DNA from: Patescibacteria group bacterium | GTDB taxonomy: Bacteria; Patescibacteriota; Minisyncoccia; Phycocordibacterales; Phycocordibacteraceae | Length of the DNA stretch: 64,000 nt | Direction of reading: 5' to 3' | NCBI GenBank assembly: GCA_004322365.1 | Contig: SCTS01000007.1 | Coordinates: forward strand, 18,266-82,265 | Part shown: positions 2,746 to 63,778 of the stretch, piece after piece | Position numbering within the stretch: the first letter of the stretch is position 1 | How the letters are laid out: each line of letters starts with the position of its first letter | The notes under the pieces: generated by a model | The model's database searches: none | What the model saw: only the letters and a program-made list of their open reading frames with translations | Told to the model about the DNA's origin: nothing | Made by a program: the position numbers and the translations under genes

Positions 2746-3043
2746 TCCACGAGGAAGCTTGAAAACCACATAACGATTCTGTTCAATTACGAACAGTGAT
2801 TTTTATTATGCTCGGTGTTCTCTTTGTGATGAGTTGTCAATGAACTGATTTCTGAGGGAACAAAAAAGGCCGCTTTTCGCGACCTCTGGTACAGGAGCTT
2901 AAAAGCTACTGTCTAGCGTCGCATTTCGCCTCTAGTGTTAGTACTCATAAACCTATGTAAGAGAATACGCCCCGAGCGAGCTTATGTCAAGGAAACGCGG
3001 GCTCGTTTGGCAAAATGAGCCCTCAGAAAGAGCTCTAAATAAA

Positions 3044-26654: not shown

Positions 26655-27239
26655 TCAAAGTCCACTCTCAGAAATAGCTTCGTTAATAAGGCGAACAAGT
26701 GTATTGCGAGATTCACGCACTGCTTTCAAAGTCGGCATATCGTACGAAATATCTAAAAATAACTTCATTATGGGATCCTCCCGCACATACCCTAACGCTG
26801 CGAGTACCCGAAGCACCGCAACGCATTCCGCTTCAAGTACATACTCCTCATCGATGTTCGGAAGAATGCGAAAGAATCCAAACAGTGCACTAAAAAGATA
26901 TGGATCACTGCCTTCTCCCCGAATAAACTGCCTAACTATTGTGATAACACGGGCCGTAACTTCTTGAGCTTTTGTATTACCTGAAAGCGCAAAGTGAGAA
27001 TTCTCAGTTTTTGTAGCGCCGATAACACGCCACACATCACGACCTTTCACCAACACAAAAACGCCCGTTGTCCCAACCTGTAGGTGCGGGCGAAGCTTTG
27101 ATCGCTCTTCACGGGCACTTTTAGCGAGAGCAGAAACAAGTCCTAACGAGTCCGTATATATAGAAATACGCACACTACCCTCTCCGGCTGAGCGCCTAGC
27201 AACTATAATCCCTCGAGCTGTTACTTCACGAACGGACAT
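26655..27239 (-). CDS. recO: DNA repair protein RecO
   Basis: 194 aa: an N-terminal OB fold (…ARGIIVARRSAGEGSVRISIYT…) and a C-terminal helical domain. Confidence 0.75.
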   Translation of the reverse strand: MSVREVTARGIIVARRSAGEGSVRISIYTDSLGLVSALAKSAREERSKLRPHLQVGTTGVFVLVKGRDVWRVIGATKTENSHFALSGNTKAQEVTARVITIVRQFIRGEGSDPYLFSALFGFFRILPNIDEEYVLEAECVAVLRVLAALGYVREDPIMKLFLDISYDMPTLKAVRESRNTLVRLINEAISESGL

Positions 27240-30200
27240 TGAACCTAAATGTCATTCCATCAAACACCAATTCACTAGTGCCACCGCCAATCTCATACGC
27301 TGACAACTTAGCGGTGGTACTGAGTACCTCCCAGTGTTTCTCCAAAAACCTTTCAACTTCTGCATCAGAGGAAACAACGAGTATTGCGGGGTCGTGCGGT
27401 GTAAGACCCGCGCCCTTACGAAGTTCTTGTATAAAGCGTAGGACCTCTCGTACATTTCCCTCTTCCTTCAGAGCATCAGAAATACTTGTGTCGAGGAGTA
27501 CCTCTCCTTTCGCCACAGACTCATCAATCACCACCTCCTTCACATTTAACTCATCTTTAATAAGTTCTAAAAGTTCTCCCTTTCCTGAAAGCTCCGAGCT
27601 GAAAGCTGAAAGTTTCTGAAGTGGTTGTCTCACCTTTATATCCGCCCTCTGCCGAGCTTCTAATCCCAATGAAACAATGCGTCGCACCTCCTCCATGTCG
27701 TGAAGCAGTTTCTCATCAATCGAATCTATATGAGGCCAAACACACAAGTGCACACTTAGGGGTGCGCCACTCTTTTTAACTTTTTGATATGCGTACTCAG
27801 CAGTAAATGGAATGAATGGCGCCGACACTTTTGTAAATTCTTCGATAATCGTTCGGAATGTTCGAAGTGCGTCCCCTGTATTTGAACCACCCTCTTTTAA
27901 ACGATCCCGCGAACGCCTCAGATACCATGTTGAAAAATCTTCAACAAACGAAAGTAAGGGGCGTGTCGCCTTATCAAGCTCATACGATTCCATTCCTGCG
28001 GTGACCTCTACAACCGTTTGATTCAAGCACGCAACTATCCACCTATCAAGCACATGCTCAGATGAACGAGCCTTCAGGTCATTCACAGTGAGGTCAGCGT
28101 AGAGCTCGTAGAAAGAAAGCACATTGAGGAATCTGCCAATAAGTTTTGAGGCAATTTCCCCCACCCCTTTTTCAGAGAAGTTCAAATCTTCCGCACGCAT
28201 CAACGGCGAAGCTAGGAGGTAATAACGGATAGCATCAGCGCCATATTTCTCTAATACGGTGACTGGATCAGGGTAATTTTTCAAACGTTTCGACATCTTT
28301 TGCCCATCTTCTGCCAAAACAATACCGTTCACAATTACATTCTTATAGGTTGCTCTGCCAAAAAGTCCGACACCTAAAACGAGGAGCGAATAAAACCAAC
28401 CCCTTGTTTGGTCTAATCCCTCAGCAATAAAATCCGCTGGGTAGCCACGAGATTTCTTGAGCCACCCCGGCTTCGGGTCGAACCTGTCTTTGTTTTCGAA
28501 TGGATAATGATTCTGAGCATACGACATTGAGCCCGACTCAAACCAGCAATCAAAAACATCATGTACACGCTCCAACCTTGTACCATCGGTGTCTATAAGC
28601 ACCACGTCATCGATGTATGGACGGTGATAATCGAGTTCATAATTTTTATTATGAGGGAGAGGAATGAAAGGAAGACTAACTATCTCGGCTGGCTTGAGCA
28701 TCGCGTGGTCGGCAAGAACAGATAGTGCTTCTTTTGCAGTGCTTCCTTTTGAAACTGCCACGAGTGCAGCTACTGGCCAGCCATGAGAAACAAACAATAT
28801 ATTTTTTCCTGCATATTTGTGTTCACATTCATAGAGAAGCGCTCCAACGCGACGACGCATATCATTAATGCTTTCGCCTTCTTCAGGACCTTTTTCAAAA
28901 AGTGGTGCTATTTCCTTAAAATGCTCTGCCCACTCACTGTCGGGACGACCATTGAAGACACCGTGATTGTATTCATTCAAACGTGAATCAGTCGATACAG
29001 CCGACACTTCAAGACCAAGAGTTTCTCGTGCTATCTCAGCAGTTTGTGTTGCCCTCAGAAGCTCCGAATGGATAATGATATCTATGTGTACTCCTAAATT
29101 TTGAGTAGATTTTTTTGCCTCCGCCTTTCCTTTTTCAGTAAGAGAGACGCCATCATCAGGCTTATAACTTATGACTTTTTTAACATTCTTCTCTGACTCT
29201 CCGTGACGCATTGCAAAATATGTATTGCCTGATTTTTTCGTGTATGACTTTAGTTCATCCAGTGAGCCAATAAAAACATTCTCTTTAGCCTTGTGGTTAC
29301 GCCACACGGGAATTGGTGCACCCCAATACCGAGCACGTGAAATTGCCCAATCCCGGGCATTGAGAAGCCAATTTCCGAACCTCTTCTCCCCTACTTCTTT
29401 GGGCACCCAATTAATGTTTTTATTTTCCGCTACAAGTTTGTTTTTAAACTTCGTGACTTCCACAAACCACGACGACGAAGCGTAATTTAACAACGGAGTA
29501 TCACACCGCCAACAATGCGGATACGAGTGTATTATTTTTTCTTTAGCAAAGAGCAATCCTTTTCCTGCAAGATATTTAATGACCGCAACATCTGTGGATT
29601 GCGAATCGTCTTTCGGTTTCGCCTGAAGTCCTTTGAAATCTGAAACGACATCGACAAAAAACCCATCCTTATCGACGTGATGCACTATCGGAATCCCTTC
29701 TTTTTGTGCGAGCTCTAAGTCTTCTGCACCAAACGCAGGAGCAAGATGCACTAACCCTGTTCCACTATCCATCGTCACATACGGAGCGTGATACACCTTC
29801 CATGCTTTTTCTTTGCCTTTTATATTGTGATCAGCAAAATACGAAAACGGAGGCTTGTATGATTTACCAACAAGTTCACTCCCAAGAAATTCTTTTTCTA
29901 CTTCATAGTCAACTTTAATTACTTCCAATCTGTCTTTAGCGAGAATGTATTTTTCATTTCCTGAGACAATTTTTACATAGGTCATATCTTTATGAACTGC
30001 AGCAGCCATGTTGCCAGGCAAGGTCCACGGCGTTGTTGTCCACGCAAGAAGAAAAGTTCCGGGTTCATCAACAAGCTCAAGTTTTGCGGTGACAGAAATA
30101 TCGGTAATGTCTTTGTATCCTTGCGCTACTTCAAAGTTAGAGAGCGTGGTGCCACAACGAGGGCACAAATGCATCGCTTTAAATCCTTCATATACCAATC

Positions 30201-30714
30201 CCTTTTTATGAAGATCATTAAATGCCCACCATACGCTTTCGGTGTAGGTGGCATCCATCGTCCTATAGTCATTCTCCATATCTACCCATCTACCGAAACG
30301 AGGAATGATAGCTTTCCAGTCATCCGAATAACGGAGGACTGCTTTGCGAGCCGCTTCATTAAATGTCGCAACCCCTAGAGTTTCAATATCTCGTTTCGTT
30401 GCAAGTCCGAGCTCTTTCTCTATCTGATTCTCTAGAGGTAATCCATGGCAATCCCAACCCCAACGGCGTGGTACATGGTAGCCCTGCATCGTTTTGTAAC
30501 GCGGGATAGCATCTTTAATGGTGCCCGCGAGAATGTGACCGTAATGTGGCAAACCTGTGGCAAATGGAGGACCATCATAAAAAACAAACTCTCCCTTTGG
30601 AGCCTCTTTGGAAAGGGTTTTTTCAAAAATCTCGTTTTTTTGCCAAAAAGCTAGGATTTCTTCCTCACGCTTGGCAGGCTCGCTTTTAGTATCTGCATCC
30701 ATAAACTTCATCAC
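27226..30714 (-). CDS. ileS: isoleucine--tRNA ligase (type 2) with an embedded histidine-phosphatase (PGAM-like) domain
   Basis: 1162 aa. HIGH region (PHYGHILAG), WCISR-like AISRARYWGAPIP, KMSKRL. Residues about 496-683 (YFAMRHGESEKN … FVSHGWPV) form a complete RHG histidine-phosphatase domain inserted before DCWFESGS. Confidence 0.9.
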   Translation of the reverse strand: MMKFMDADTKSEPAKREEEILAFWQKNEIFEKTLSKEAPKGEFVFYDGPPFATGLPHYGHILAGTIKDAIPRYKTMQGYHVPRRWGWDCHGLPLENQIEKELGLATKRDIETLGVATFNEAARKAVLRYSDDWKAIIPRFGRWVDMENDYRTMDATYTESVWWAFNDLHKKGLVYEGFKAMHLCPRCGTTLSNFEVAQGYKDITDISVTAKLELVDEPGTFLLAWTTTPWTLPGNMAAAVHKDMTYVKIVSGNEKYILAKDRLEVIKVDYEVEKEFLGSELVGKSYKPPFSYFADHNIKGKEKAWKVYHAPYVTMDSGTGLVHLAPAFGAEDLELAQKEGIPIVHHVDKDGFFVDVVSDFKGLQAKPKDDSQSTDVAVIKYLAGKGLLFAKEKIIHSYPHCWRCDTPLLNYASSSWFVEVTKFKNKLVAENKNINWVPKEVGEKRFGNWLLNARDWAISRARYWGAPIPVWRNHKAKENVFIGSLDELKSYTKKSGNTYFAMRHGESEKNVKKVISYKPDDGVSLTEKGKAEAKKSTQNLGVHIDIIIHSELLRATQTAEIARETLGLEVSAVSTDSRLNEYNHGVFNGRPDSEWAEHFKEIAPLFEKGPEEGESINDMRRRVGALLYECEHKYAGKNILFVSHGWPVAALVAVSKGSTAKEALSVLADHAMLKPAEIVSLPFIPLPHNKNYELDYHRPYIDDVVLIDTDGTRLERVHDVFDCWFESGSMSYAQNHYPFENKDRFDPKPGWLKKSRGYPADFIAEGLDQTRGWFYSLLVLGVGLFGRATYKNVIVNGIVLAEDGQKMSKRLKNYPDPVTVLEKYGADAIRYYLLASPLMRAEDLNFSEKGVGEIASKLIGRFLNVLSFYELYADLTVNDLKARSSEHVLDRWIVACLNQTVVEVTAGMESYELDKATRPLLSFVEDFSTWYLRRSRDRLKEGGSNTGDALRTFRTIIEEFTKVSAPFIPFTAEYAYQKVKKSGAPLSVHLCVWPHIDSIDEKLLHDMEEVRRIVSLGLEARQRADIKVRQPLQKLSAFSSELSGKGELLELIKDELNVKEVVIDESVAKGEVLLDTSISDALKEEGNVREVLRFIQELRKGAGLTPHDPAILVVSSDAEVERFLEKHWEVLSTTAKLSAYEIGGGTSELVFDGMTFRFNVRS

Positions 30715-34137: not shown

Positions 34138-35397
34138 TTACACAAAGGACTCAGGAATTGGGAACTGCCCCGCAAGCTCTTTGACTTCTTCATGCACCGC
34201 ACGCTTTGTATCCGCATTATCTTTATTTTTCAGTGTTTGAATCATAAGCTCAGCAACGCGCGCGCACTCCACCTCTTTAAATCCACGAGTCGTTATTGCG
34301 GGAGAACCAAAGCGTATACCAGATGGATCGAGAGGTTTCCGTGTATCCCCTGCAATCGAGTTCATGTTGAGTGTAATACCAACTTCATCCAAGACCGTCT
34401 GTGATTCTTTTCCTGTCACCCCTAAAGAGCCGAATACATCCGCAAGAATCAAATGGTTGTCCGTGCCCCCTCCAATCATACGCACCCCCTCTCGTCGAAG
34501 CACATGCTCCATTGCTTTAGCATTTTTCAAAATTTGTTGCGCATACTCTTGAAACGCAGGGGTTGATGCTTCGCCAAACGCAACTGCCTTCGCGGCGATA
34601 GTGTGCATGTGAGGCCCTCCTTGAATGCCTGGGAAAATTGCTTTATCTATCTTGGTTGCGATTTCCTCGTTTTCACGCGTGAGAATAATGCCACCACGAG
34701 GCCCTCGAAGTGTCTTGTGTGTCGTTGAAGTAATGATGTCGAAGCCGTCATCGAAAGGATTCCTCAGTGCCTTGCCAGCAATAAGGCCGGCAATGTGTGC
34801 CATGTCTGCCATCGTTATTGCCCCCACTTCATGCGCAATATCAACAAACTTTTTGTAGTCGAGTGTGCGTGAATATGCACTGAAGCCTGCAAGAATAATT
34901 TTAGGTTTCGTTTCAATTGCAACTCGGCGGAGTTCGTCATAATCTATCTCCCCTGTCTCAGGGTCTTTCATTTTGTAGGTAACGAACTTGTAGACTTTCG
35001 CAGGGAGTGTCATTGGGTGTCCGTGCGTAAGGTGCCCGCCGTGTGACAAATCCATACCAAGAACTGTGTCACCAGGATTCAAAAGCGCTGCGTACACCGC
35101 TAAGTTTGCAGGTGCTCCCGAGTGAGGCTGTACATTCGCAAATTTACAATTAAAAAGAGCCTTCACACGCTCAATAGCAAGACGCTCCACAATATCCGTA
35201 TACATCTGTCCGCCGTAGTAACGCTTACCTGGATACCCTTCTGAATATTTGTTTGTAAATACTGAGCCATTCGCTTCAAGAACCGCACGGGATACATAAT
35301 TTTCAGAAGGAATAAGCTCTAAGCCCTCTTCCTCTCGCTTTTGCTCGCCTGCAATCGCTGCCGCTACTTCTACATCCTGTTTTTCTATGTATGCCAT
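34138..35397 (-). CDS. glyA: serine hydroxymethyltransferase
   Basis: 419 aa: …LIPSENYVS…, PLP-lysine region …TTHKTLRGPRGG…. Confidence 0.95.
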   Translation of the reverse strand: MAYIEKQDVEVAAAIAGEQKREEEGLELIPSENYVSRAVLEANGSVFTNKYSEGYPGKRYYGGQMYTDIVERLAIERVKALFNCKFANVQPHSGAPANLAVYAALLNPGDTVLGMDLSHGGHLTHGHPMTLPAKVYKFVTYKMKDPETGEIDYDELRRVAIETKPKIILAGFSAYSRTLDYKKFVDIAHEVGAITMADMAHIAGLIAGKALRNPFDDGFDIITSTTHKTLRGPRGGIILTRENEEIATKIDKAIFPGIQGGPHMHTIAAKAVAFGEASTPAFQEYAQQILKNAKAMEHVLRREGVRMIGGGTDNHLILADVFGSLGVTGKESQTVLDEVGITLNMNSIAGDTRKPLDPSGIRFGSPAITTRGFKEVECARVAELMIQTLKNKDNADTKRAVHEEVKELAGQFPIPESFV

Positions 35398-35401: not shown

Positions 35402-36133
35402 TTATTTCTTACCCTTAATAACTTTTAAAACAGTGCCATAAATTTGCTCGTGTATCTCTTCTCTCGGAAGAATACCATTTTTGTTTCCGCACTCAATCTT
35501 CTTCCAATTTCCTTTTTGGCTAATAAGTTTTAAGGCGCTTTTCTGTGCTGCCTCAAGATACTTCGCATCCCCTTCTACAATATCCTTTCCTCTATGGGCA
35601 TAGCGTTTTTTATCCTCCCGATCCTTATTCTTCAAAAGCTTCAATACCTCTTTCATGGGGAGATGGAGGTACACAATCAAATCAGGTCGCGGGAGCCCAA
35701 ATACTCCATGCTCCATGGTGTCGAGCCACTTTAAAAATGCGCGACGCTTCTTCGCATCATTTATTTTTCCTCCCTGATGGAGCTGATTCGCCGACACATA
35801 ACGATCAAGAACAACTGTTTTCCCTTCTTTTAGCCAATCATCCAATTTTTCTTTGGATTCAAAACGGTCAGCTGCATACATAACTGAGGCGATGTAGGGG
35901 TCAATATGCAAAAAATCGCCATACTCCCCCGTGAGCATGGCACCTATGAAGTGACCGAAGAAATTCTTGTAGTACTGCGGAAAATCGAGCGTTTCAACCT
36001 TCACTCCTTCTCGTTTTAAGCGTGCAACCAAGAGCTTTGTTTGGGTTGCTTTACCTACCCCATCGGTACCATCTATTACTATGAGTCTTCCCTTTTTACT
36101 CCTCATTATCCCCAGTATATCGCGAGCTTTCAT
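35402..36133 (-). CDS. tmk: thymidylate (dTMP) kinase
   Basis: P-loop IVIDGTDGVGKATQ, DRY-like motif LDRYVSANQ. Confidence 0.85.
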   Translation of the reverse strand: MKARDILGIMRSKKGRLIVIDGTDGVGKATQTKLLVARLKREGVKVETLDFPQYYKNFFGHFIGAMLTGEYGDFLHIDPYIASVMYAADRFESKEKLDDWLKEGKTVVLDRYVSANQLHQGGKINDAKKRRAFLKWLDTMEHGVFGLPRPDLIVYLHLPMKEVLKLLKNKDREDKKRYAHRGKDIVEGDAKYLEAAQKSALKLISQKGNWKKIECGNKNGILPREEIHEQIYGTVLKVIKGKK

Positions 36134-36137
36134 TTTT

Positions 36138-36176
36138 CCCCTAAACGCTATACGCTATAGGCTATACGCTCTCTAT
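36138..36176. repeat. CTAAACGCTATACGCTATAGGCTATACGCT repeat in the tmk/thyA divergent region
   Basis: Tandem GCTATAC/CTAAACGCT units, related to 37007-37042. Confidence 0.6.
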
Positions 36177-37004
36177 ATGAAGCAATACAACAACCTCCTC
36201 AAGAAAGTTTTAGAAGAAGGCGCAGACCGTGAGACACGAAACGGAAAAACCCGTGCACTCTTTGGACTCCAAATGCGCTTCAACATGGCAGACGGATTTC
36301 CTGCCGTCACCACAAAAAAATTAGCATTCAAAGCAGTGAAGAGTGAACTTTTGTGGTTCATTGAAGGCTCAAACGACGACAACCGTTTGAAAGAATTAAA
36401 TAGTAGTGAGCGCACCATCTGGACCGACAATGCTGAAGCTCCGTACTGGGCACCAAAAGCAAAATTTCCTGGCGATTTAGGTCGCGTCTATGGAGTGCAG
36501 TGGAGAAAATGGCAAGGACCAAACGGTAAGGTCGTCGACCAACTTGCAGAAGTCATCGAGAAAATAAAAACGGATCCAACTAACCGCAGACTCATCGTCT
36601 CTGCATGGAATCCAGGGGAGCTCGATCAAATGGCATTACCTCCGTGCCACATGTTCTTCCAGTTTTTCGTGGCGGATGGAAAACTTTCGCTTCTCATGCA
36701 TCAACGCTCATGCGACATGTTTCTTGGCGTGCCATTCAACATCGCCTCGTACTCCTTACTCCTCGCAATGGTGGCGCAAGTAACAAACCTCGTTCCTCAC
36801 GAATTCGTACACTCACTTGGCGATGCGCACATCTATCACGATCACTTGGATGCAGTGAAAGAACAACTTTCGCGTGAGCCATTAGCTCTCTGCTCTTTGA
36901 AATTGAATCCATCTGTGAAAAATATTAACGACTTCAAAATGGAAGATATAGAGCTCGAAAATTACCAGTCCCACCCACCAATAAAAGCGAAGATGGCTGT
37001 GTAA
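36177..37004 (+). CDS. thyA: thymidylate synthase ThyA; the ORF track start at 36081 overlaps tmk, so the ATG at 36177 is preferred
   Basis: MKQYNNLLKKVLEEG…, active-site …PPCHMFFQF…. Confidence 0.93.
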   Translation: MKQYNNLLKKVLEEGADRETRNGKTRALFGLQMRFNMADGFPAVTTKKLAFKAVKSELLWFIEGSNDDNRLKELNSSERTIWTDNAEAPYWAPKAKFPGDLGRVYGVQWRKWQGPNGKVVDQLAEVIEKIKTDPTNRRLIVSAWNPGELDQMALPPCHMFFQFFVADGKLSLLMHQRSCDMFLGVPFNIASYSLLLAMVAQVTNLVPHEFVHSLGDAHIYHDHLDAVKEQLSREPLALCSLKLNPSVKNINDFKMEDIELENYQSHPPIKAKMAV

Positions 37005-37053: not shown

Positions 37054-37749
37054 ATGGCTTTATCTGACAAAAAAATCCTCGAGCACATGAAGGCAGGTAC
37101 TGTGGTTATTGAACCGTTTCAGCGTGAAAACCTCGCAACATCAAGCTACGACGTAACTTTGGGCGAATGGTACTTCAAAGAACAACCACCTCAAGGCCAC
37201 AAGAAAATCTACAATGTATACAGCAAGTCAGACACAGAAGTTGTCTGGGACACTAAGCCTCGCCGAGCAAAAACAGCCAAGGAGGAGCTTAAAAACTTCA
37301 ACTTTTCTTTTGACGGCATCCGCCCTGACGACAAGGTTATTTTGATGGAACCGGGCGAAACTATTCTTGCGCACACACAGGAGTTCATTGGCGGTAGAGA
37401 GTCCGTGACAACCATGATGAAGGCCCGCTCTTCAATGGGCAGAAATTTCATCAATGTCTGTAAATGTGCAGGTTGGGGAGATGTAGGGTACACCAACCGC
37501 TGGGTTATGGAAATTTCAAACGCCTCTCAGCACTACATAATCCCCCTCGTTGTTGGGCGTAGAATTGCGCAATTAGTATTTTTTGAAACTGGCCCTATTC
37601 TTGCAGGTGACTATACAAAAACTGGTAAATACCAAACGACCACCGATGTCGCGAAACTAAAGAAGACATGGAAACCGGAAACGATGTTGCCAAAACTTTG
37701 GGCTGATAGGGACATCAAAAAGCACCACCCATGGCACAAGCAAAAATAA
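37054..37749 (+). CDS. dcd: dCTP deaminase (Dcd/dUTPase-fold) family protein
   Basis: 231 aa, N-terminus MALSDKKILEHMKAGTVVIEPF…SYDVTLG…. Lies between thyA and folA. Confidence 0.8.
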   Translation: MALSDKKILEHMKAGTVVIEPFQRENLATSSYDVTLGEWYFKEQPPQGHKKIYNVYSKSDTEVVWDTKPRRAKTAKEELKNFNFSFDGIRPDDKVILMEPGETILAHTQEFIGGRESVTTMMKARSSMGRNFINVCKCAGWGDVGYTNRWVMEISNASQHYIIPLVVGRRIAQLVFFETGPILAGDYTKTGKYQTTTDVAKLKKTWKPETMLPKLWADRDIKKHHPWHKQK

Positions 37750-38216
37750 TTGCTATCGCTGCAATCGGCAGGAATCGAGGTTTGGGTAAGGACAATAATC
37801 TTATCTATAAGATTCCTGAGGATATGAAACACTTCCGTGATGCCACGATGGGGCATCCCATAGTCACTGGGCGCAAAAACTTTGAATCGATGGGCCGTGC
37901 CTTACCGGGGCGTCCCACCATTGTTGTAACGAGGGACACTACATATATGTCAGAGGGAGTTATCGTAGTGCACGCAATCGAAGATGCGCTAGCGAAAGCG
38001 CGCGAGTTAGACACTGAAAAAATCTTTATCATTGGTGGCGGTGAAATATATAAAGCGGCACTCCCCTATACAGACCAGCTTGACCTCACATTGATTGACG
38101 ACGAAAAAGAGGCTGACGTGTTTTTCCCTGAATACTCAGAATTTACTAAAGTGATTTCGGAAGAAAAAAAAGAGCACGAAGGAACTTCGTACTCTTTTGT
38201 CACTCTCACGCGCTGA
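37731..38216 (+). CDS. folA: dihydrofolate reductase
   Basis: …IIAIAAIGRNRGLGKDNNL…, …IIGGGEIY…. Confidence 0.93.
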   Translation: MAQAKIIAIAAIGRNRGLGKDNNLIYKIPEDMKHFRDATMGHPIVTGRKNFESMGRALPGRPTIVVTRDTTYMSEGVIVVHAIEDALAKARELDTEKIFIIGGGEIYKAALPYTDQLDLTLIDDEKEADVFFPEYSEFTKVISEEKKEHEGTSYSFVTLTR

Positions 38217-38228: not shown

Positions 38229-38438
38229 TTAGGACACCGGCGTATAGGTTAATTTCTTACACTTTCGATGTCTACAAACATTGGTGATTGCATGCCCCCC
38301 TCCTTCAACGTCAACTGTCGCAGTGGCCTTCCAATAATGATTTCCACCATCTGCACACTGCCCACGATATTCAGTCAACCCAACATCTACCTGCTCCAAA
38401 GGAACCATTTTCCTAAGTATGCGTACTTCTTTATTCAT
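38229..38438 (-). CDS. hypothetical small Cys-containing protein (69 aa)
   Basis: ORF only; no RBS or homolog recognised. Confidence 0.25.
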   Translation of the reverse strand: MNKEVRILRKMVPLEQVDVGLTEYRGQCADGGNHYWKATATVDVEGGGHAITNVCRHRKCKKLTYTPVS

Positions 38439-38790
38439 CTTTTAAGAATACAACACAAAAATATACAAGTCAATGCCCTGGGAAATTCACTGTATTTAGC
38501 AGAGCGAACCTAATCGTTATAGTCACCGAGCTCGTTACAGTGTATACATTGCTTCCTTGCCTTAAGACTCAATGCAGGATTCGCACCAAAATACCTCCAC
38601 TCGTGTTTACCATTCTCTGACCGTTTACTTGAACACTTTGATTCAGATTCTTTACCTCGACCCCTTCGAACACCTACCCCCGAGGCCTCATGTGCTGATA
38701 GATTCATATACATTAGTAGTAAATAATAAAGTCTACTAATTACTCTAATAACTACCCTATATACATAAGTACTCCTCAAAAGATGGCTCG

Positions 38791-39531
38791 TCAACTCTTT
38801 CTCTTTTCACCTTTCTGCCACCCTACATTTTTCAAAAAAGGCTCAAAAAGGTCTTCCTCTATAGCCGAGGAGAAAGAATCAGTACTTACATGCTCCTTGT
38901 TACCAATGAAAGGCGCATTCCGAATACGCACAATTGGTGTCTGCTCATTCGCCTCCCCCATCACAAATGACGCGGCGGCTGCTAACGAGTCTGGAATATT
39001 TGTTTGGCTTCCTCCTGATGGAGTGCCTAAAATATCAATACGATTTTTATTACTGAAGAGTGGTTCAAACCCCGCCCATGCGAGTGCGATACCCACGACA
39101 CCTTTTCGAAGAAATACACTCCGCGAGTCCGTCATGATGAGATACAAATTTTTGATCTTGTATGTTTCTTTAAACCAAGCCAAAAGTTCTTCGGCAGATT
39201 TTTGTGGATTTTCAGGCCATAGGACATAAAACTTTCCTAGTGGGTCAATACCAGCCGAGGGAATAAGAATCCCATTCGTGATGGTGTGCACTACGGCACC
39301 GTCTCGCATATCTTCTCGAGGGATGTACCAATCGGCTTCTTGCTTCACCAATTCATCTTTCTTCGTAAAGTCACGCTCTACACACCTGCCTTCAGATATA
39401 GAAACAACCTTGGATGAAATTGCCACAACATCGCCCTCTTCGAGCGTAAGTGTCGAAGCTTTTATTTTTGAAAATAAATCATCCTTTGGCGGATGGAGAA
39501 TATCAATAGAAAATGCGGTGACGTCCATCAC
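38791..39531 (-). CDS. CofE-like gamma-glutamyl ligase family protein (F420-0:gamma-glutamyl ligase fold), paralog 1
   Basis: 246 aa. …GDVVAISSKVVSISEGR…, …NLYLIMTDSR…GVVGIALAWAGF… match the CofE/F420-ligase fold. Paralogous to 53943..54650. Confidence 0.8.
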   Translation of the reverse strand: MMDVTAFSIDILHPPKDDLFSKIKASTLTLEEGDVVAISSKVVSISEGRCVERDFTKKDELVKQEADWYIPREDMRDGAVVHTITNGILIPSAGIDPLGKFYVLWPENPQKSAEELLAWFKETYKIKNLYLIMTDSRSVFLRKGVVGIALAWAGFEPLFSNKNRIDILGTPSGGSQTNIPDSLAAAASFVMGEANEQTPIVRIRNAPFIGNKEHVSTDSFSSAIEEDLFEPFLKNVGWQKGEKRKS

Positions 39532-39662: not shown

Positions 39663-40082
39663 CTACTTCACGTCGATCCCCATGGAGCGAGCCGTACCGG
39701 CAATGATTTTCATTGCTTGCTCAGTATCTTTTGTATTCAAGTCAGGCATCTTCTTCTCAGCAATCTCTTTGAGTTGCGCCTTTGTGATTGAACCTGCTTT
39801 TACTGTTGGAACCTTTCCAGAACCCTTCTCCAAACCTGCCCATTTCAAAAGGAGACGTGATGCTGGAGACACCTTAACAATAAAGGTGAACGAACGATCG
39901 TCCATGACCGAAATCTCAACAGGAAGGATGTCGCCCATTCTGTCTTGGGTTGCGGCATTGAACTGCTGAACAAACTGGCCAATGTTTACACCGGCTGGAC
40001 CGAGAGCTGTTCCCACTGGAGGCGCAGGAGTTGCCTTACCGCCTGGAACCTGAAGCTTAATTTTCTTTACTACTTTTGCCAT
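39663..40082 (-). CDS. rplK: 50S ribosomal protein L11
   Basis: …[26 protein letters not shown]…. Confidence 0.95.
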
Positions 40083-40097: not shown

Positions 40098-40640
40098 TTA
40101 TATTTTCTTAACTTGCAAAAAATCGAGCTCAACTGGTGTCTCACGACCGAACATAGACACTAACACTTTTACCTTACCCTTCTCCTCGTCAATCTCACCA
40201 ATGCGACCCTCCAAATCCTTGAAGGGACCATCCGCAACAATAACAGGCTCCCCGACAGCAAAGTCAATTTTATGCTTTGCAATATCGGTCGACATGCGCT
40301 TGAAGAGAATGTTCATTTCATCCTCCGTCAAAGGCACTGGAGTAACACCAGATCCCACGAAGCCCGTCACGCGAGGAGTGTTACGAACAATGTACCAACT
40401 CTCATCGTCAACAATCATGTCAACCAAGATGTAGCCTGGGTAAATTTTCTCTTCAACGGTATTTCGCTTACCACCCACTACCTTAATTTTCTTTTCAGTT
40501 GGGATAACCACATTAAAGATCTTGTCCTGCATGTTCAGGGAATCAATACGCTGTTTTAAGTTACGAAGAACAGCGTTCTCATATCCTGAGTATGTGTGTA
40601 CTGCGTACCAACCTCGTGTTCCTTCTGTTTGTTTTGCCAT
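40098..40640 (-). CDS. nusG: transcription antitermination factor NusG
   Basis: …[14 protein letters not shown]…, KOW …[18 protein letters not shown]…. Confidence 0.95.
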
Positions 40641-48880: not shown

Positions 48881-48953
48881 GTGTCATTGTTGGGTGGCTA
48901 CAGGGAATCGAACCCTGATCGAGAGCTCCACAAGCTCCAGTGTTAACCGTTAC
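48881..48953 (-). tRNA. tRNA-His (anticodon GTG) with an encoded G-1; no CCA encoded
   Basis: GGTGGCTATGGTGTAACGGTTAACACTGGAGCTTGTGGAGCTCTCGATCAGGGTTCGATTCCCTGTAGCCACCC. 7-bp acceptor plus G-1:C73, anticodon loop TTGTGGA, T-loop TTCGATT. Confidence 0.9.
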
Positions 48954-49025
48954 ACCATAGCCACCATATACTCCGTCCCGCTCGCTTTGTGCGCGCTTGC
49001 ACAAAGCGAGCCTGCGAATCGAAGT

Positions 49026-49109
49026 GTGCCCAGGAGAGGACTCGAACCTCCACGCCCTTGCGGGCTTCACCACCTCAAGGTGAAATGTCTACCAGTTTCA
49101 ACACCTGGG
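49026..49109 (-). tRNA. tRNA-Leu (anticodon GAG), class II with a long variable arm; no CCA encoded
   Basis: GCCCAGGTGTTGAAACTGGTAGACATTTCACCTTGAGGTGGTGAAGCCCGCAAGGGCGTGGAGGTTCGAGTCCTCTCCTGGGCA. Confidence 0.85.
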
Positions 49110-49119
49110 CAAATACTTT

Positions 49120-49779
49120 TTAAGTTCCCTGTGCAAAAAGAGCTTTGAAAATCTTAGTTCTTTTTCGCTTGAGGCAAGGAACCGTAGGAGAATAATACAT
49201 GTTTTTGATAATTTTTAAAGACTCTGCCTTAGCATATTTTAATTGATATACAGATGCAGTTCTGCCATGTGTAATATGTCCGTGCACATTTAGAAGGTGC
49301 CCTAATTTTGAACGAATCCAATCGATGTGCTCTTTACTTGCACTCACAAAGACTAAATAAAACATAAAGCTTGATTTCCAGCGTTTATCCCAATATGAAT
49401 GGAAGCTTCCATCTCCATCATGATGCCCGCGCAAAAAATCAAAGAAGTATTTATCGGGAATATTTAACAATCCAATAGTTCTCGTTTTGTTCGGAGTAAG
49501 TCCAATACTTAAAAGAAATTTATACAAAATAACATCTCCAAATTGAATACGACCTGTCATCGCATTAGTGGAGCCCGATTTTTTTGTTCCAATTTTCACC
49601 TTTATATCGAGACACTTCATAAAAGTCTCCCGCTGTGCACGGTCTTTTGAAGTTAACTCAATATGTCGGCCATCATTAGAAAGAGACCCGTCTGTAGCAA
49701 TAAGCCCAATGGCATAGCCCAAGTTAGAAGACCACACGATAGGTACTTTTCTTTTTGGTGGTGACCCTGGCTTGCCCAT
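49120..49779 (-). CDS. free-standing LAGLIDADG homing endonuclease (two-motif, single-chain)
   Basis: Motif 1 GYAIGLIATDGSL, motif 2 DFLRGHHDGDGSF. The gene ends 10 nt before the tRNA-Leu 5' end on the same strand. Confidence 0.85.
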   Translation of the reverse strand: MGKPGSPPKRKVPIVWSSNLGYAIGLIATDGSLSNDGRHIELTSKDRAQRETFMKCLDIKVKIGTKKSGSTNAMTGRIQFGDVILYKFLLSIGLTPNKTRTIGLLNIPDKYFFDFLRGHHDGDGSFHSYWDKRWKSSFMFYLVFVSASKEHIDWIRSKLGHLLNVHGHITHGRTASVYQLKYAKAESLKIIKNMYYSPTVPCLKRKRTKIFKALFAQGT

Positions 49780-52004: not shown

Positions 52005-52349
52005 TCATTTTTTATCTTTAAAACGAGAGAGGCACTCGTACGAATAGGTGATAACAATAGAAGCGGCACCCCACAGAAAAGGAAGCCAGAGAGGAAGGCC
52101 GAAAAAATCTGGCGATTCGTAATGCCATACTCCTTTCCCAATTGCGATAGCCTCCGTGAGAGGGCCCCACAGCGCTACAAACACATAGACCGCTGTGATT
52201 TTTTTACTCCTGAGAACCACAAGCATCAGTGCTGAAATCACAAAAAGCGTGAGCGTGAGTATAAAAGACTCACGCCATAGCAGTACCACAGCACTTACAG
52301 ATCCTATGTATCCTAGGACAACGCTCGCTGTTTTAAGGCTCAGTTTCAT
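52005..52349 (-). CDS. hypothetical small membrane protein (114 aa, 3-4 TM)
   Basis: Hydrophobic ORF with no recognisable family. Confidence 0.5.
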   Translation of the reverse strand: MKLSLKTASVVLGYIGSVSAVVLLWRESFILTLTLFVISALMLVVLRSKKITAVYVFVALWGPLTEAIAIGKGVWHYESPDFFGLPLWLPFLWGAASIVITYSYECLSRFKDKK

Positions 52350-52439
52350 AACAAAACGGTATCATAAAAAAATAGAGGGGGAAGAATATCTTAGGTGTGA
52401 TTGGAATAAAAAAAACTTTTAGTGTACTCTGAGCAATTC

Positions 52440-52515
52440 GGGCGATTAGCTCAGTTGGTAGAGCGCTTCATTTACACTGAAGATGTCGCAGGTTCAAGTC
52501 CTGCATCGCCCACCA
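52440..52515 (+). tRNA. tRNA-Val (anticodon TAC) with an encoded CCA
   Basis: GGGCGATTAGCTCAGTTGGTAGAGCGCTTCATTTACACTGAAGATGTCGCAGGTTCAAGTCCTGCATCGCCCACCA. Confidence 0.9.
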
Positions 52516-52674
52516 CAATATAATTTCTTGTTATTATGAGAACCATGCGTTTTATAAAAACACTATGATTCACAGTCGCCACAAAAAAAGTTGGTCTGGG
52601 TTTAACTAAAGTCTTTCATTTGAGGCAGTTGGAATACTGCTAATTTTTATTTTTTAACTAACCACTAACGAACC

Positions 52675-53337
52675 ATGCTCCAATTTACTGAATCATCACT
52701 TAAAAAACTTCTCTTAGCTCTTGCCATTTATCTTGCATCTCTTTTCGCCGCAAACACTCTCGGACTTAAAATCATGCCGTTTCTTTTCGGTACCGGTCTT
52801 TCTGTGGCTGTTTTCTCTTTCCCTATTGTATTTCTCATGACCGATGTCATTGGCGAAGTGTATGGAAAGCGAGTTGCAAAACTCTTCGTACTTGCAGGAT
52901 TCATTGCAACAGCACTCTTCATCCTGTACTCATTCATTTCAATTGCAATGCCGTGGTCTCCAAGAGGCTTGTGGGTAAGCGAAGGATATAACCAAGTCTT
53001 CGGTATTTCCGTCAGAATGGCAATCGCATCTCTAGTCGCATTCGCTATTGCTCAATACCAGGATGTTATTTCATTCTTCTTCTTCAAAAAGATCTTAGGA
53101 AAATCTGGATTCTGGCTTCGTTCAACACTCTCAAATATGTGGTCACAATTTCTCGACACAGTAATTTTTATGGTAATCGCATTTGCAGGCGTGTACTCAA
53201 CATCAACACTTATAGGCATCATGTTTAGTTGGTGGCTCTACAAGGTTGCTATGGGCTTCCTCTATACTCCACTCTCCTACATCGCAATACGCCTACTCAA
53301 AGACAAGAATGAAACCAAAGACCCAGCCTCTGCCTAA
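52675..53337 (+). CDS. queuosine-precursor transporter family (YhhQ/VUT, DUF165) membrane protein
   Basis: 220-aa polytopic protein with the characteristic N-terminal region …LFAANTLGLKIMPF…SFPIVFLMTDVIGEVYGK…. Confidence 0.75.
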   Translation: MLQFTESSLKKLLLALAIYLASLFAANTLGLKIMPFLFGTGLSVAVFSFPIVFLMTDVIGEVYGKRVAKLFVLAGFIATALFILYSFISIAMPWSPRGLWVSEGYNQVFGISVRMAIASLVAFAIAQYQDVISFFFFKKILGKSGFWLRSTLSNMWSQFLDTVIFMVIAFAGVYSTSTLIGIMFSWWLYKVAMGFLYTPLSYIAIRLLKDKNETKDPASA

Positions 53338-53842
53338 AACACGCTTCGTTGCCTATGTAGCAACATCCATCGATGGACGCATCTCACTTGAAAAAAGGAA
53401 GCTTCCTGATTGGACTAGCAAGGAAGATTGGAAGTTCTTCCAGAGCGAACTCGCGCATGCTGATGCAGTTGTTGTAGGAAGAAATACATACCTATCTGCT
53501 CAAAGTCGTCTCCAGAAACGCACAACTTTCGTGCTATCGAGTAGAGTAAAAAATAAGCTCAAAAAAGGTACAGTCACCTTCATCAATCCAGCATGCAACG
53601 ATCTTAAGAAGCTCTTCTCAGTGTATAAGACAGTCGCCATAGTTGGTGGTGTACGGGTCTACCAAACAATGCTCGACAGCAATCTCCTCCACGAGCTCTA
53701 TGTAACTATTGAACCTCTAGTGTTTGGACGAGGAGTTCCAATGTTTTCCGGTGGTTCAAAAACAAAGCAGTTCGAACTCGTCTCCGTAAAAAAACTTAAT
53801 ACAACGAGCACACTTCTTCTTCACTACAAGGTAAAGAAGTAA
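53309..53842 (+). CDS. RibD C-terminal/DHFR-fold reductase family protein; ORF track starts at 53246
   Basis: MKPKTQ…FVAYVATSIDGRISL…WTSKEDWKFF…ADAVVVGRNTY… typical of RibD_C. Overlaps the previous gene by 29 nt. Confidence 0.8.
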   Translation: MKPKTQPLPKTRFVAYVATSIDGRISLEKRKLPDWTSKEDWKFFQSELAHADAVVVGRNTYLSAQSRLQKRTTFVLSSRVKNKLKKGTVTFINPACNDLKKLFSVYKTVAIVGGVRVYQTMLDSNLLHELYVTIEPLVFGRGVPMFSGGSKTKQFELVSVKKLNTTSTLLLHYKVKK

Positions 53843-53879
53843 CCCTCACTCAATTATTAAATGTGTAAAAAATAATCGA

Positions 53880-53915
53880 TATAGTATAATCTAACGATCG
53901 TTAGATTATACTATA
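53880..53915. promoter_or_regulatory. 17-2-17 perfect palindrome TATAGTATAATCTAACG-AT-CGTTAGATTATACTATA; putative operator/promoter of the CofE-like gene 53943..54650
   Basis: Perfect 36-bp palindrome 28 nt upstream of the ATG. The core GTATAAT[T/C]TAACG..CGTTA[A/G]ATTATAC is shared with 5083-5110. Confidence 0.6.
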
Positions 53916-53942
53916 CAGCTATCCTTAACCTACCTAGGGCAT

Positions 53943-54650
53943 ATGCATGTGCAAGCAATCAAAACACGGGTGTTCAAAAAAGACGAGGATCTTTCTCTGT
54001 TCATTTTTGAATATCTAAAAAAAATCCCGGAGCGTTCAGTACTTGTAATTGCCTCAAAAATTGTCGCGCTCTCCGAAGGACGCACTGCACAGATATCTGA
54101 AAAAAATAAACTAATAAAAAGAGAGAGTTCGTGGGCACTTAAGACGGGAAAAGTTTGGCTCACTGAAAAGAGTGGAATGATTATGGCGAATGCTGGCATT
54201 GATGAATCAAATGCCCAAGGAGAATTGGTACTTCTACCAAAAGACAGTTTTGCTTCAGCGGAGCGTTTGCGAAAAATGTTGCAAAAAAAATACCGAGTGA
54301 AAAACCTCGGCATCGTAATTACCGATAGCGCGCTCATGCCCCTCAGAGCTGGTGTAGTGGGTGCCGCGCTTGGATATGCAGGCTTTAAGGGGGTGCGAGA
54401 TTACCGAGGAAAGAAAGACGTCTTTGGAAGAAAAATGGAAATGTCGCGTACCAATGTTACTGATAGCCTAGCTACCGCCGGCACGCTCGTTATGGGTGAG
54501 GGAGCAGAACAACAACCACTGGCGCTTATTACTGAAGCTCCTGTTGAGTTTGTAGAAAAAACAAATAAGAAAGAACTAAAGATTGCAGCGAAGGAGGATA
54601 TTTTTTGGCCGTTGTTGAAACGGTACATTCAAAAAACGGGTCGAGACTGA
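53943..54650 (+). CDS. CofE-like gamma-glutamyl ligase family protein, paralog 2
   Basis: 235 aa: …SVLVIASKIVALSEGR…, …NLGIVITDSALMPLRAGVVGAALGYAGF…. Same fold as 38791..39531. Confidence 0.8.
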   Translation: MHVQAIKTRVFKKDEDLSLFIFEYLKKIPERSVLVIASKIVALSEGRTAQISEKNKLIKRESSWALKTGKVWLTEKSGMIMANAGIDESNAQGELVLLPKDSFASAERLRKMLQKKYRVKNLGIVITDSALMPLRAGVVGAALGYAGFKGVRDYRGKKDVFGRKMEMSRTNVTDSLATAGTLVMGEGAEQQPLALITEAPVEFVEKTNKKELKIAAKEDIFWPLLKRYIQKTGRD

Positions 54651-62854: not shown

Positions 62855-63778
62855 ATGAACTTCTTTAAAAAATACGCGCCATTCCTCGTTCTTTTTGCAG
62901 CAATGTTATGGGCAACAGATGCCCCCTTTCGCCTCCACTTAACAGAAGGGCTTTCCAGTAACTTTATTGTTCTTGGAGAGCATTTCATTGCAATCCTATT
63001 TGTCTTGCCAATATTACTTCTCAACTGGAGAGAACTAAAAAAACTGAAACTAAAGGAATGGCTCGCTGTTCTTTTCATTGCTATCGGCGGAAGTGCTCTT
63101 GCTTCAGTTGCCTTTACGCAAGCATTTCATTACCTCAACCCATCAGTAGCTATTCTTCTACAGAAACTTCAACCATTTATGGTAATCGGCTTAGCGGCAG
63201 TTGTCCTTAAAGAAACTCTTGGTCGCAGGTTTTGGCTTTTCGCCGTTGTATCGATTATAGGAGCGTACCTAATCTCATTCCCAAACTTCATTCCTCAAAC
63301 CTATCCAGGGGAGACATTTAATGCAAACCTGCTTGGTGTAGGACTTGCACTCATCGCTGCATTCTTCTGGGGTGCATCGACGGTGTTTGGAAAATTGGTA
63401 CTCAACAAAACAAACTTCAAGGTAATGACGGGATTACGATTTTCCGTTGCGTTTATCTTTCTTATTTTCTTGAACCTATTTCAGCAATCATTCCCCGATT
63501 GGAGCACCGTCACCTCTACTGACTACCTCTTCATCGGTATCATCGGTATCACCTCAGGTGTAGTATCTCTCTTCATTTACTACAAAGGTCTCGAAAACAC
63601 GAGTGCATCTGTCGCAACAATGGCAGAGCTCGGATTCCCTCTTGGAGCGGTCGTTGTGAATTGGATATTTTTGGGCGCCATATTACTCCCTATGCAAATT
63701 TTTGGCATGGCAATTCTGCTCTTGGGTGTATACGGGCTCGCAAAATATAACGGCGAGGTTAAAGGGGTTAGCGTTTAG
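62855..63778 (+). CDS. EamA/DMT-family transporter (10 TM)
   Basis: Two EamA-like halves. 307 aa. Confidence 0.8.
   Translation: MNFFKKYAPFLVLFAAMLWATDAPFRLHLTEGLSSNFIVLGEHFIAILFVLPILLLNWRELKKLKLKEWLAVLFIAIGGSALASVAFTQAFHYLNPSVAILLQKLQPFMVIGLAAVVLKETLGRRFWLFAVVSIIGAYLISFPNFIPQTYPGETFNANLLGVGLALIAAFFWGASTVFGKLVLNKTNFKVMTGLRFSVAFIFLIFLNLFQQSFPDWSTVTSTDYLFIGIIGITSGVVSLFIYYKGLENTSASVATMAELGFPLGAVVVNWIFLGAILLPMQIFGMAILLLGVYGLAKYNGEVKGVSV

Follow-up and report, generated by a model that had tools for sequence, protein, structure and literature searches.

Two CofE-like ligases encoded in the genome of a Patescibacteria (CPR) bacterium are probably folate-type glutamyl ligases and not F420 enzymes. 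One of them, ligase B, stands at the end of an apparent operon that also encodes a Vut_1-family membrane transporter and a second, Thermotoga-type dihydrofolate reductase (DHFR), and this link suggests an import-reduce-trap module for folate salvage, with folate as the putative substrate of the transporter. That a CofE homolog can replace FolC is already established, which makes the advance incremental; new here are the two deep paralogous clades of the ligase and the recurrent link to a transporter.

The analysis covers a 64 kb stretch of DNA, referred to here as the window (GCA_004322365.1, contig SCTS01000007.1, positions 18,266-82,265 of the forward strand). An earlier note on this DNA had described a CofE-like ligase together with a DHFR-fold gene at two separate loci, and all four genes were recovered at or near the positions it had reported. 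The features of the two loci, numbered from the first letter of the window, are as follows.

34138..35397, reverse strand: glyA, serine hydroxymethyltransferase (Pfam SHMT, 5.7e-152), syntenic in the related loci L004 and L090
35402..36133, reverse strand: tmk, dTMP kinase (Thymidylate_kin, 6.6e-19; NF005923, 4.9e-34), divergent from thyA
36177..37004, forward strand: thyA, folate-dependent thymidylate synthase (Pfam Thymidylat_synt, 1.8e-106)
37054..37749, forward strand: dcd, dCTP deaminase-like (Pfam DCD, 2.5e-31), overlapping folA by 19 nt
37731..38216, forward strand: folA, canonical dihydrofolate reductase (Pfam DHFR_1, 8.2e-49)
38791..39531, reverse strand: ligase A, CofE-like and FolC2-like, clade A (PF01996, 1.3e-30), likely start ATG 39528
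39663..40082, reverse strand: rplK (phmmer with an L11 query), conserved upstream neighbour of the ligase slot
40098..40640, reverse strand: nusG (phmmer with a NusG query), conserved upstream neighbour of the ligase slot
52675..53337, forward strand: Vut_1 / COG1738 (YhhQ-family) membrane transporter (Pfam Vut_1, 2.5e-39)
53309..53842, forward strand: second DHFR, RibD_C/DHFR-fold, 177 aa (RibD_C, 3e-14; DHFR_1, 1.6e-12)
53880..53915, no strand assigned: perfect palindrome of 36 bp, picked up by a terminator scan in the 100 nt that separate the second DHFR gene from that of ligase B
53943..54650, forward strand: ligase B, CofE-like and FolC2-like, clade B, 235 aa (PF01996, 3e-42)

At locus A, the thyA-dcd-folA block named in the earlier note lies entirely on the forward strand and is followed by the convergent ligase A gene, at a measured distance of 574 nt where about 570 nt had been given; this gap holds two small minus-strand ORFs. 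The likely start of thyA is the ATG at 36177, inside the ORF 36081..37004, in which the Pfam match begins at residue 34; in L004 the homologous protein has 275 aa. An alignment with E. coli FolA shows that the folA product keeps its catalytic and binding residues. The ligase A gene faces folA and runs in the same direction as secE-nusG-rplK; the setting of this copy reads as nusG-rplK, then folA-dcd-thyA, then a tmk-glyA block. The earlier note had described neither the glyA and tmk genes that adjoin thyA nor the position of this copy downstream of secE-nusG-rplK on the same strand.

At locus B, the order from the transporter through the Thermotoga-type DHFR to ligase B has the appearance of an operon, and the start of the second DHFR gene overlaps the end of the Vut_1 gene by 29 nt. 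The reductase and the ligase had already been paired in the earlier note, and Pfam matches were obtained for both; the Vut_1 gene was absent from it. The palindrome in the spacer occurs once in the window and is kept in the related loci L001, L003, L007 and L008, where its changes are symmetric on both arms. It has no match in Rfam and may act as an operator or form an RNA hairpin. An Rfam gathering-threshold scan of the window, an E-value scan of 52200..54100 and a scan of 19 related loci yielded no THF or preQ1 riboswitch; all they returned was tRNAs and rRNA.

The family assignment of the ligases rests on model scores, a tree and the residues of the active site. Ligases A and B share 37% identity (E 1e-40). 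For both paralogs the top NCBIfam model is TIGR04132, 'putative folate metabolism gamma-glutamate ligase' (210.8 bits for B and 189.3 bits for A), the curated cutoff of which, 350 bits, is reached by neither; for a third CPR clade the same model gives 253-280 bits. On TIGR01916, the CofE equivalog model, B reaches 154.2 and A 92.8 bits, both below the cutoff of 180.65 bits. For true CofE controls the order is reversed: TIGR01916 gives 275-288 bits and TIGR04132 about 92. A homolog search seeded with the clade nearest to TIGR04132 returned CPR proteins only (Microgenomates: Daviesbacteria, Levybacteria and Roizmanbacteria), and a look-up of the exact ligase B sequence gave no record.

The phylogeny of the paralogs against CofE, proposed as a check in the earlier note, gave a clear separation. 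In a neighbour-joining tree with 60 bootstraps, clades A and B and the third CPR clade split from CofE, including the A. fulgidus enzyme (Af-CofE), in 60/60 replicates, and the same split appeared in 99/100 replicates of a neighbour-joining run without Af-CofE in which some distances were undefined. Clade A is monophyletic in 58/60 and clade B in 60/60 replicates. The tree contains no Chlamydia sequence, which leaves the relation of A and B to the experimentally tested member of the family indirect; the family-model scores stand in for that comparison.

The active site points in the same direction. Ligase B aligns with Af-CofE (2phn) at E 8e-26 with its metal-ligand motifs retained, and the metal and nucleotide ligands D109, D150, T/S151 and E208 (Af-CofE numbering) are invariant across all clades. 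In Af-CofE, the F420 chromophore is held by G153-R154 and by stacking on R234 (PMC10861534). These residues are frequent in the CofE controls (G153 in 14/16, R154 in 15/16 and R234 in 10/16) and are replaced in the CPR proteins, where the G153-R154 position reads S-V in clade A and L/T-L/M in clade B, while the R234 position is occupied by F/I/S in A and by I in B. K45 of CofE is likewise replaced in both. Furthermore, the S111-N112 pair beside the metal-binding Asp has disappeared from clade A, so the chemistry of A may differ. [quoted passage not shown] They differ from A and B in clade, in family-model score, in the replaced chromophore residues and in the absence of F420 genes nearby.

FolC was sought with the E. 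coli protein as query in all ORFs of the window and in 1.63 Mb of related loci. There is no folC within the 64 kb window, and the related loci hold no FolC homolog, only weak Mur-ligase-type matches. The two strongest of these, in L074 and L066, were considered as FolC and are both MurE; a weaker third match lies in L136 (E 0.012). The window contains no F420 biosynthesis (cof) genes, and to that extent the statement in the earlier note that such genes are not otherwise evident holds. FolC itself (COG0285, a DHFS/FPGS of the Mur-ligase family) has a fold unrelated to that of A and B and would share with them the proposed reaction and role, the glutamylation of folates for their retention and quality as cofactors. 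Our literature search found no paper that discusses folC in CPR. In a 2025 study, folA, glyA and folD are widespread in CPR genomes, those of Paceibacterales among them, and no known folate transporter was found there; folylpolyglutamate synthase is left undiscussed, and folC, cofE, folP and folK were not found in its supplement (PMC11974145).

The closest characterized system is FolC2. Non-orthologous displacement of FolC by FolC2 was described in 2007 (PMC1971073), and Chlamydia CT611, a member of the same COG1478, complements E. coli folC (PMC1971073, PMC4161248). A and B share with FolC2 (C. trachomatis CT611; TIGR04132) the fold, the PF01996 domain and the clustering with folA or other folate genes, and the hosts are alike in their reduced genomes, with no FolC in the window or the related loci examined here. 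Unlike FolC2, A and B remain at 189-211 bits, below the 350-bit cutoff, and represent two deep paralogous clades within one genome. The partners differ as well: in Chlamydia, folC2 belongs to a de novo cluster (folB-folKP-folA-folC2-ct610), whereas the genes found here are those of the thymidylate cycle, a Vut_1 transporter and a T. maritima-type DHFR, a difference that suggests salvage and not synthesis.

The second reductase of locus B was compared with known DHFRs. Among solved structures it matches the T. maritima DHFR best (1cz3/1d1g), along its whole length and at E 1.5e-19, and it scores 47.9 bits on DHFR_1, for which the cutoff is 25. The equivalents of E. coli A7, W22, D27, F31, G43, T46, L54, R57, G95-G96, Y100 and T113 are kept in 20 or more of the 22 homologs; D27, R57, G95-G96, Y100 and T113 are present in 22/22, and R44 in 16/22. 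R57 of DHFRs binds the alpha-carboxylate of the glutamate of folate. Judged by this residue conservation, the second reductase is a full DHFR. The T. maritima enzyme, which reduces both folate and dihydrofolate (PMC10861534), is its closest structural relative and shares its key DHFR residues, at roughly 30-35% identity as estimated by eye from the alignment. Unlike the T. maritima enzyme, the product of 53309..53842 is also matched by the RibD_C model, and its genome encodes a canonical FolA as well. Both DHFR types occur together in the single loci L011, L013, L021, L027 and L051, which indicates that the second reductase is more than a simple replacement of FolA.

To place these arrangements in context, gene neighbourhoods were compared among related bacteria. 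Of the related metagenome loci, 21 extend 600 bp or more beyond the A-type ligase on its downstream side; in 17 of these, folA is convergent with the ligase and within 1 kb downstream of it. Where the flank reaches at least 3.5 kb, 11 of 12 A-type loci include thyA. For the B-type ligase, 80 species-level genome loci of Paceibacteria-type CPR bacteria were counted. A Vut_1 gene lies directly upstream on the same strand in 48/80 species and within 4 kb in 49/80; the same 4 kb contain a RibD_C-like DHFR in 20, folA in 26, thyA in 24 and folB in 3, and another count places folA nearby in 27. The great majority of the neighbours are thus folate or thymidylate genes, namely folA, thyA, glyA, a second DHFR and now and then folB. 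A RibD_C-like or Vut_1 gene is found within 2.5 kb of the ligase at 59/80 loci. L11 is encoded upstream of the A-type ligase in 22/24 loci and within 4 kb of the B-type ligase in 31/80. The dN/dS ratios are 0.07 for ligase A, 0.16-0.18 for ligase B and 0.04-0.05 for Vut_1, and the four tested genes of loci A and B (0.04-0.18) are under purifying selection. Because of this selection and the recurrence in relatives (17/21 A-type and 59/80 B-type loci), the pairing of ligase and DHFR-fold genes is beyond chance. Part of the conserved neighbourhood may nonetheless reflect synteny inherited within one bacterial class and not functional coupling. An ATP-grasp ligase gene, absent from the window, follows the B-type ligase in 15/80 related loci. 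It was considered as a CofF/MptN-type alpha-glutamate ligase and proved nearer to cyanophycin-synthetase/GshAB domains, with 40 bits on the CofF model against a cutoff of 300.

Taken together, the family models, the tree, the active site, the gene neighbours and the absences in the window support what the earlier note had proposed, namely glutamylation of folates or pterins by a FolC substitute and not a function in F420 synthesis. More specifically, A and B are most likely FolC2-type gamma-glutamyl ligases, nucleotide- and metal-dependent amide ligases of COG1478 that add L-glutamate to folates, acting in place of canonical FolC as folylpolyglutamate synthases and possibly as dihydrofolate synthases too. 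Locus A would then constitute a thymidylate-cycle block, in which GlyA would load THF to give 5,10-methylene-THF, ThyA would consume it and release dihydrofolate, and FolA would restore THF, with ligase A placed at the end of the block. At locus B, the Vut_1-family permease would import external folate or a related pterin, the Thermotoga-type DHFR would reduce the imported compound, and ligase B would glutamylate it, which would retain it in the cell and make it a good cofactor. The two ligases may divide the work, either as first glutamate against chain extension or as salvage against the thymidylate cycle.

The transporter is a candidate importer of the substrate of ligase B, and our assignment of folate as its cargo is tentative and somewhat short of likely. 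A wider proposal is possible if short of likely: that Vut_1 is the missing importer of folate, pteroate or pterin in Paceibacteria-type CPR, that the three genes form a self-contained module and that A and B split the work. Against both stands another account, somewhat unlikely in our judgement, in which the ligases are folate enzymes, Vut_1 is an ordinary queuosine-precursor transporter that accompanies them by inherited gene order, and folate enters the cell otherwise. On TIGR00697, the model named 'queuosine precursor transporter', the window protein reaches 129.7 bits against a cutoff of 50.95, and similar scores are obtained for the ligase-linked copies at other loci and for an unlinked Vut_1 paralog in L008. 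Most loci also come from one bacterial class in which the nusG-rplK order is itself conserved, our literature search found no paper linking COG1738/YhhQ to folate, and the scans described above gave no riboswitch or other regulatory element that would tie Vut_1 to folate. However, the Vut_1-ligase link recurs in at least three settings (beside rplK; with uppS and pil genes, as in the window; and at infC-rpmI-rplT with an A-type ligase), and in L005 and L113 Vut_1 is convergent with the A-type ligase, so that the pair involves both ligase clades and occurs in several unrelated surroundings and orientations. The gene overlaps or abuts its neighbours in operon-like fashion, and no tgt or que genes occur within the window. 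The Vut_1 protein matches NF008406, the model for YhhQ of the E. coli type, weakly, at 50.1 bits against a cutoff of 252.

The known 7-deazaguanine transporters of this group (YhhQ / COG1738, E. coli YhhQ) resemble the window protein in Pfam and TIGR00697 family and in their length of about 220 aa, and differ from it in that the window gene shares its apparent operon with genes for a DHFR and a folate-type ligase and not with queuosine genes. The window holds no second, more YhhQ-like Vut_1 paralog. The additional Vut_1 gene of L008 was considered as such a copy, but its similarity to E. coli YhhQ does not exceed that of the Vut_1 proteins linked to ligases, and it therefore does not discriminate.

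An improbable alternative to folate is that ligase B, and perhaps A, glutamylates another pterin, a carboxylated 7-deazaguanine or a flavin-like compound brought in by Vut_1 and reduced by the DHFR-like enzyme. It would fit the chromophore pocket, which differs among A, B and the third clade and not just from CofE, the 7-deazaguanines assigned to relatives of Vut_1 by family annotation, and the presence of both DHFR types in the five loci named above. The second reductase, however, retains R57, the catalytic D27 and all other key DHFR positions, the gene neighbours include folA, thyA, glyA and folB, and the sole tested member of this COG1478 branch acts on folate (PMC1971073).

Lastly, a true CofE function of A and B in F420 biosynthesis is very improbable: the PF01996 match, the name 'coenzyme F420-0:L-glutamate ligase' given to most public homologs and an ATP-grasp gene that loosely recalls a CofE/CofF pair would favour it, but both proteins fall below the TIGR01916 cutoff and outside the CofE clade, the G153-R154 segment and the R234 that stacks on the deazaflavin have been lost, the neighbours are folate genes with no cof gene in the window, and the ATP-grasp protein is not of the CofF type. 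For some homologs, the name given by JGI or NCBI is already 'dihydrofolate synthase / folylpolyglutamate synthase' or 'putative folate metabolism gamma-glutamate ligase'.

CPR or Patescibacteria make up a large fraction of bacterial diversity, and their reliance on partners is thought to include cofactors. With A and B as folate-type ligases and Vut_1 as the putative importer, the genes described here offer candidates for two gaps in CPR biology, a folate transporter and a folylpolyglutamate synthase. Thousands of CPR proteins named 'coenzyme F420-0:L-glutamate ligase' by NCBI are probably folate enzymes, and if so, the capacity for F420 is over-called in CPR genomes. Likewise, a protein automatically named 'queuosine precursor transporter' may carry folate. 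If true, transport of a folate or pterin would be a specificity new to the YhhQ family and would add a substrate class to Vut_1, so far known only for 7-deazaguanines.

The window derives from a member of the Patescibacteria (CPR) of the Paceibacteria/Parcubacteria type, with its nearest homologs (88-97% identical) in 'Candidatus Pacebacteria/Paceibacterota' and 'Parcubacteria group bacterium Greene0714_7' MAGs and in groundwater-type metagenomes. As an earlier note had described, it carries two CofE-like genes, here ligases A and B (37% identical), each beside a DHFR-fold gene.

Genes and intervals of locus A and locus B
34138..35397, minus strand, glyA
35402..36133, minus strand, tmk, divergent from thyA
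36177..37004, plus strand, thyA
37054..37749, plus strand, dcd, 19-nt overlap with folA
37731..38216, plus strand, folA
574-nt gap between folA and ligase A, containing two small Cys-rich minus-strand ORFs
38791..39531, minus strand, ligase A, CofE-like, convergent to folA and co-directional with secE-nusG-rplK
52440..52512, tRNA gene
52675..53337, Vut_1/COG1738 transporter gene
53309..53842, RibD_C/DHFR-fold gene (177 aa), 29-nt overlap with the transporter gene
100-nt spacer between the reductase and ligase B genes, containing a 36-bp perfect palindrome
53943..54650, ligase B, CofE-like

The note's observation, with a thyA-dcd-folA block and a convergent CofE-like gene behind folA, holds at the coordinates it gave. 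The ORFs in this gap, 38229..38438 (69 aa) and 38510..38704 (about 64 aa), are without any NCBIfam match. In L004, a 90%-identical relative, genes of 69 and 64 aa, comparable to those of the window by size and position, are called in the same gap. Since folA abuts the ligase gene directly in most other A-type loci (those of ligase A homologs), the two ORFs look like a lineage-specific insertion.

Both ligases match Pfam F420_ligase, and their best NCBIfam model is TIGR04132, the FolC2 family model ('putative folate metabolism gamma-glutamate ligase'), on which B scores 210.8 and A 189.3 bits, both under the cutoff. On the CofE equivalog model TIGR01916 (cutoff 180.65), B reaches 154.2 and A 92.8 bits. 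Genuine CofE from the metagenome scan shows the reverse pattern (275-288 bits on TIGR01916, about 92 on TIGR04132), and a third CPR clade, from Microgenomates according to a homolog search, scores 253-280 bits on TIGR04132. The paralog phylogeny that the note had proposed was computed by neighbour joining (distance-based; 95 sequences, 237 columns, 60 bootstraps, without a Chlamydia reference). It recovered clade A in 58/60 and clade B in all 60 bootstraps; the CofE clade, including A. fulgidus CofE (Af-CofE), and its separation from A, B and the third clade were each found in 60/60. A and B are not sisters (grouped in 1/60). An earlier run agrees with this tree.

To compare active sites, the structural description of Af-CofE (PMC10861534) was mapped onto the alignment. 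D109, D150, T/S151 and E208, which bind metal and nucleotide, do not vary in any clade. In Af-CofE, the G153-R154 segment faces the F420 chromophore and R234 stacks on it (PMC10861534). CofE keeps G153-R154, for which A, B and the third clade have small or hydrophobic residues; R234 is likewise conserved in CofE and replaced in these three. Clade A is without S111-N112 beside D109 and has conserved residues of its own, such as a His at position 95; it is the more derived enzyme. Sub-cutoff TIGR01916 scores, the split in the tree and the replaced chromophore residues led us to reject a CofE identity for ligases A and B.

Gene neighbourhoods were compared in 80 B-type loci, one genome per species, whose flanks were searched by phmmer with the window proteins, and in 31 A-type loci from metagenomes. 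Directly upstream, on the strand of the ligase gene, 48/80 B-type loci have a Vut_1 gene and 18 a RibD_C-like reductase gene (20 within 2.5 kb, counting both strands); at least one of the two occurs within 2.5 kb in 59/80. Flanking folA and thyA occur in 27 and 25 of the 80, respectively. Of the A-type loci, 21 extend 600 bp or more downstream of the ligase gene, and 17 of these have a convergent folA no further than 1 kb downstream, at folA-ligase gaps of -52 to +624 nt; rplK is upstream in 22/24, and thyA was found in 11/12 loci whose flank spans 3.5 kb or more. Given these counts, the noted pairing of DHFR-fold and ligase genes is beyond chance.

Close relatives retain the exact Vut_1-reductase-ligase B order, which in the window lies between uppS plus a tRNA gene and a pilM-pilN cluster. 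Many other Paceibacteria have a B-type gene in a shared slot, nusG-rplK-Vut_1-ligase B, followed by folA-thyA; in the window lineage the A-type gene occupies the nusG-rplK slot. Identical longest-contig figures for A and B homologs in four relatives (316,070; 127,744; 101,909; 24,804 bp) suggest that the two share contigs there. Purifying selection acts on all four genes of interest (dN/dS 0.04-0.18). The related loci come mostly from one bacterial class, and the neighbourhood signal may therefore be partly inherited gene order; the recurrence of the Vut_1-ligase pair with both ligase clades and across three or more distinct genomic settings counts against mere inheritance.

Several further genes accompany B-type ligases. 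In 15/80 species the ligase is followed by an ATP-grasp ligase gene (about 335 aa; L010:8695-9720), outside the window, whose product is nearest to cyanophycin-synthetase and GshAB ATP-grasp domains and might extend the same cofactor tail by further amino acids; dCMP-deaminase-like and MazG-like genes often come next, before folA-thyA. An ORF of about 235 aa (e.g. L013:3907-4611), with no Pfam or NCBIfam match, lies within two gene slots upstream in 10 species and abuts the RibD_C-like gene in L013. In 3/80 loci a gene for dihydroneopterin aldolase, folB, is found no more than 4 kb from the ligase: directly upstream in L024 (7642-7992; the sole copy scanned against Pfam) and, as phmmer homologs, in two further species. 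These copies hint at a pterin branch partly retained in some relatives.

The best solved relative of the RibD_C-like product is Thermotoga maritima DHFR (Tm-DHFR, 1cz3/1d1g; E 1.5e-19, end to end); the RibD_C-like product itself is barely alignable with the folA product of the window (26% identity over 87 residues). An alignment of the RibD_C-like gene, 22 homologs, E. coli FolA, Tm-DHFR and the window FolA showed equivalents of A7, W22, D27, F31, G43, T46, L54, R57, G95-G96, Y100 and T113 conserved in the RibD_C-like reductases, with D27, R57, G95-G96, Y100 and T113 present in 22/22 homologs. R57 is the residue with which DHFR binds the glutamate carboxylate of folate. Because these key residues are kept, the product is most probably a true second DHFR and not a reductase of the riboflavin pathway. 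Nor does it merely stand in for FolA, since five related loci (L011, L013, L021, L027, L051) have the two reductase types next to each other. Both folate and dihydrofolate are substrates of Tm-DHFR (PMC10861534). Such an ability would fit an enzyme that reduces oxidised folate obtained by salvage.

The role of Vut_1 is more tentative. From its neighbourhood alone we consider folate import possible, at somewhat less than even odds. Its score exceeds the curated cutoff for 'queuosine precursor transporter', and transport of a queuosine precursor is the competing assignment, which this score favours at the expense of folate import. We found no literature linking COG1738/YhhQ to folate, and a 2025 study of CPR folate metabolism found no known folate transporter in CPR genomes (PMC11974145). 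The related locus L008 (89% identity) has a second, divergent Vut_1 paralog at 12703-13455, about 4 kb from ligase B (72 bits against the window Vut_1); both L008 paralogs score alike on generic family models, and the window has no second copy.

The palindrome, TATAGTATAATCTAACGATCGTTAGATTATACTATA at 53880..53915, occurs once within the window and had no match in Rfam. Four relatives keep it, with both arms changed symmetrically (TC..GA to AG..CT), and it could be the operator of a dimeric regulator or an RNA hairpin. No regulatory RNA naming the transporter ligand was found.

Elsewhere in the window, isoleucyl-tRNA synthetase (27226..30714, minus strand, 1162 aa) has a His_Phos_1 (histidine-phosphatase) domain at residues 501-662, inserted inside its catalytic domain; L004 has the same architecture. 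A stand-alone riboflavin kinase (115 aa, Flavokinase domain only) lies between aldo/keto reductase and EamA transporter genes; this trio (61516..63778, plus strand), which recurs in L002 and L003, could serve as a small unit for flavin salvage. A 23S rRNA gene (1..2751, minus strand) is cut by the left edge, and a LAGLIDADG-like ORF (49120..49779, minus strand) adjoins two tRNA genes at 48893..49110.

GlyA, ThyA and FolA, a complete thymidylate cycle, are all encoded within the window. The cycle requires tetrahydrofolate; neither folate synthesis genes nor FolC nor, in line with the note, F420 genes were found within the 64 kb. Family scores, tree, active site and neighbours support the note's proposal of folate-type glutamylation by a FolC substitute. 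We regard the ligases as quite probably folate-type rather than F420 enzymes, and the best-supported reading is that both would glutamylate folates in place of FolC, judging by homology, active-site pattern, neighbourhood and one experimental precedent in the same COG. Locus A would then serve the thymidylate cycle. Locus B would be a salvage operon, in which the Vut_1 permease would import, the Tm-type DHFR reduce, and ligase B add glutamates, trapping and activating the cofactor.

The folate-ligase interpretation is right, yet it rediscovers a known displacement. [quoted passage not shown] The feature is real and of a known kind, a FolC2-type folate glutamyl ligase, in a new arrangement. Unlike in Chlamydia, two ancient paralogous clades, both below the TIGR04132 cutoff, occur in one small genome; the setting is salvage and the thymidylate cycle instead of a de novo cluster; and Vut_1 transporter and Tm-type DHFR genes are recurrent operon partners. 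Some CPR homologs are already labelled 'dihydrofolate synthase / folylpolyglutamate synthase' or 'putative folate metabolism gamma-glutamate ligase' (JGI, NCBI), while most are named F420 ligase in public annotation, probably a widespread mis-annotation, which the present analysis flags. The arrangement furthermore offers a cheap, testable prediction of how CPR bacteria would get and retain folate.
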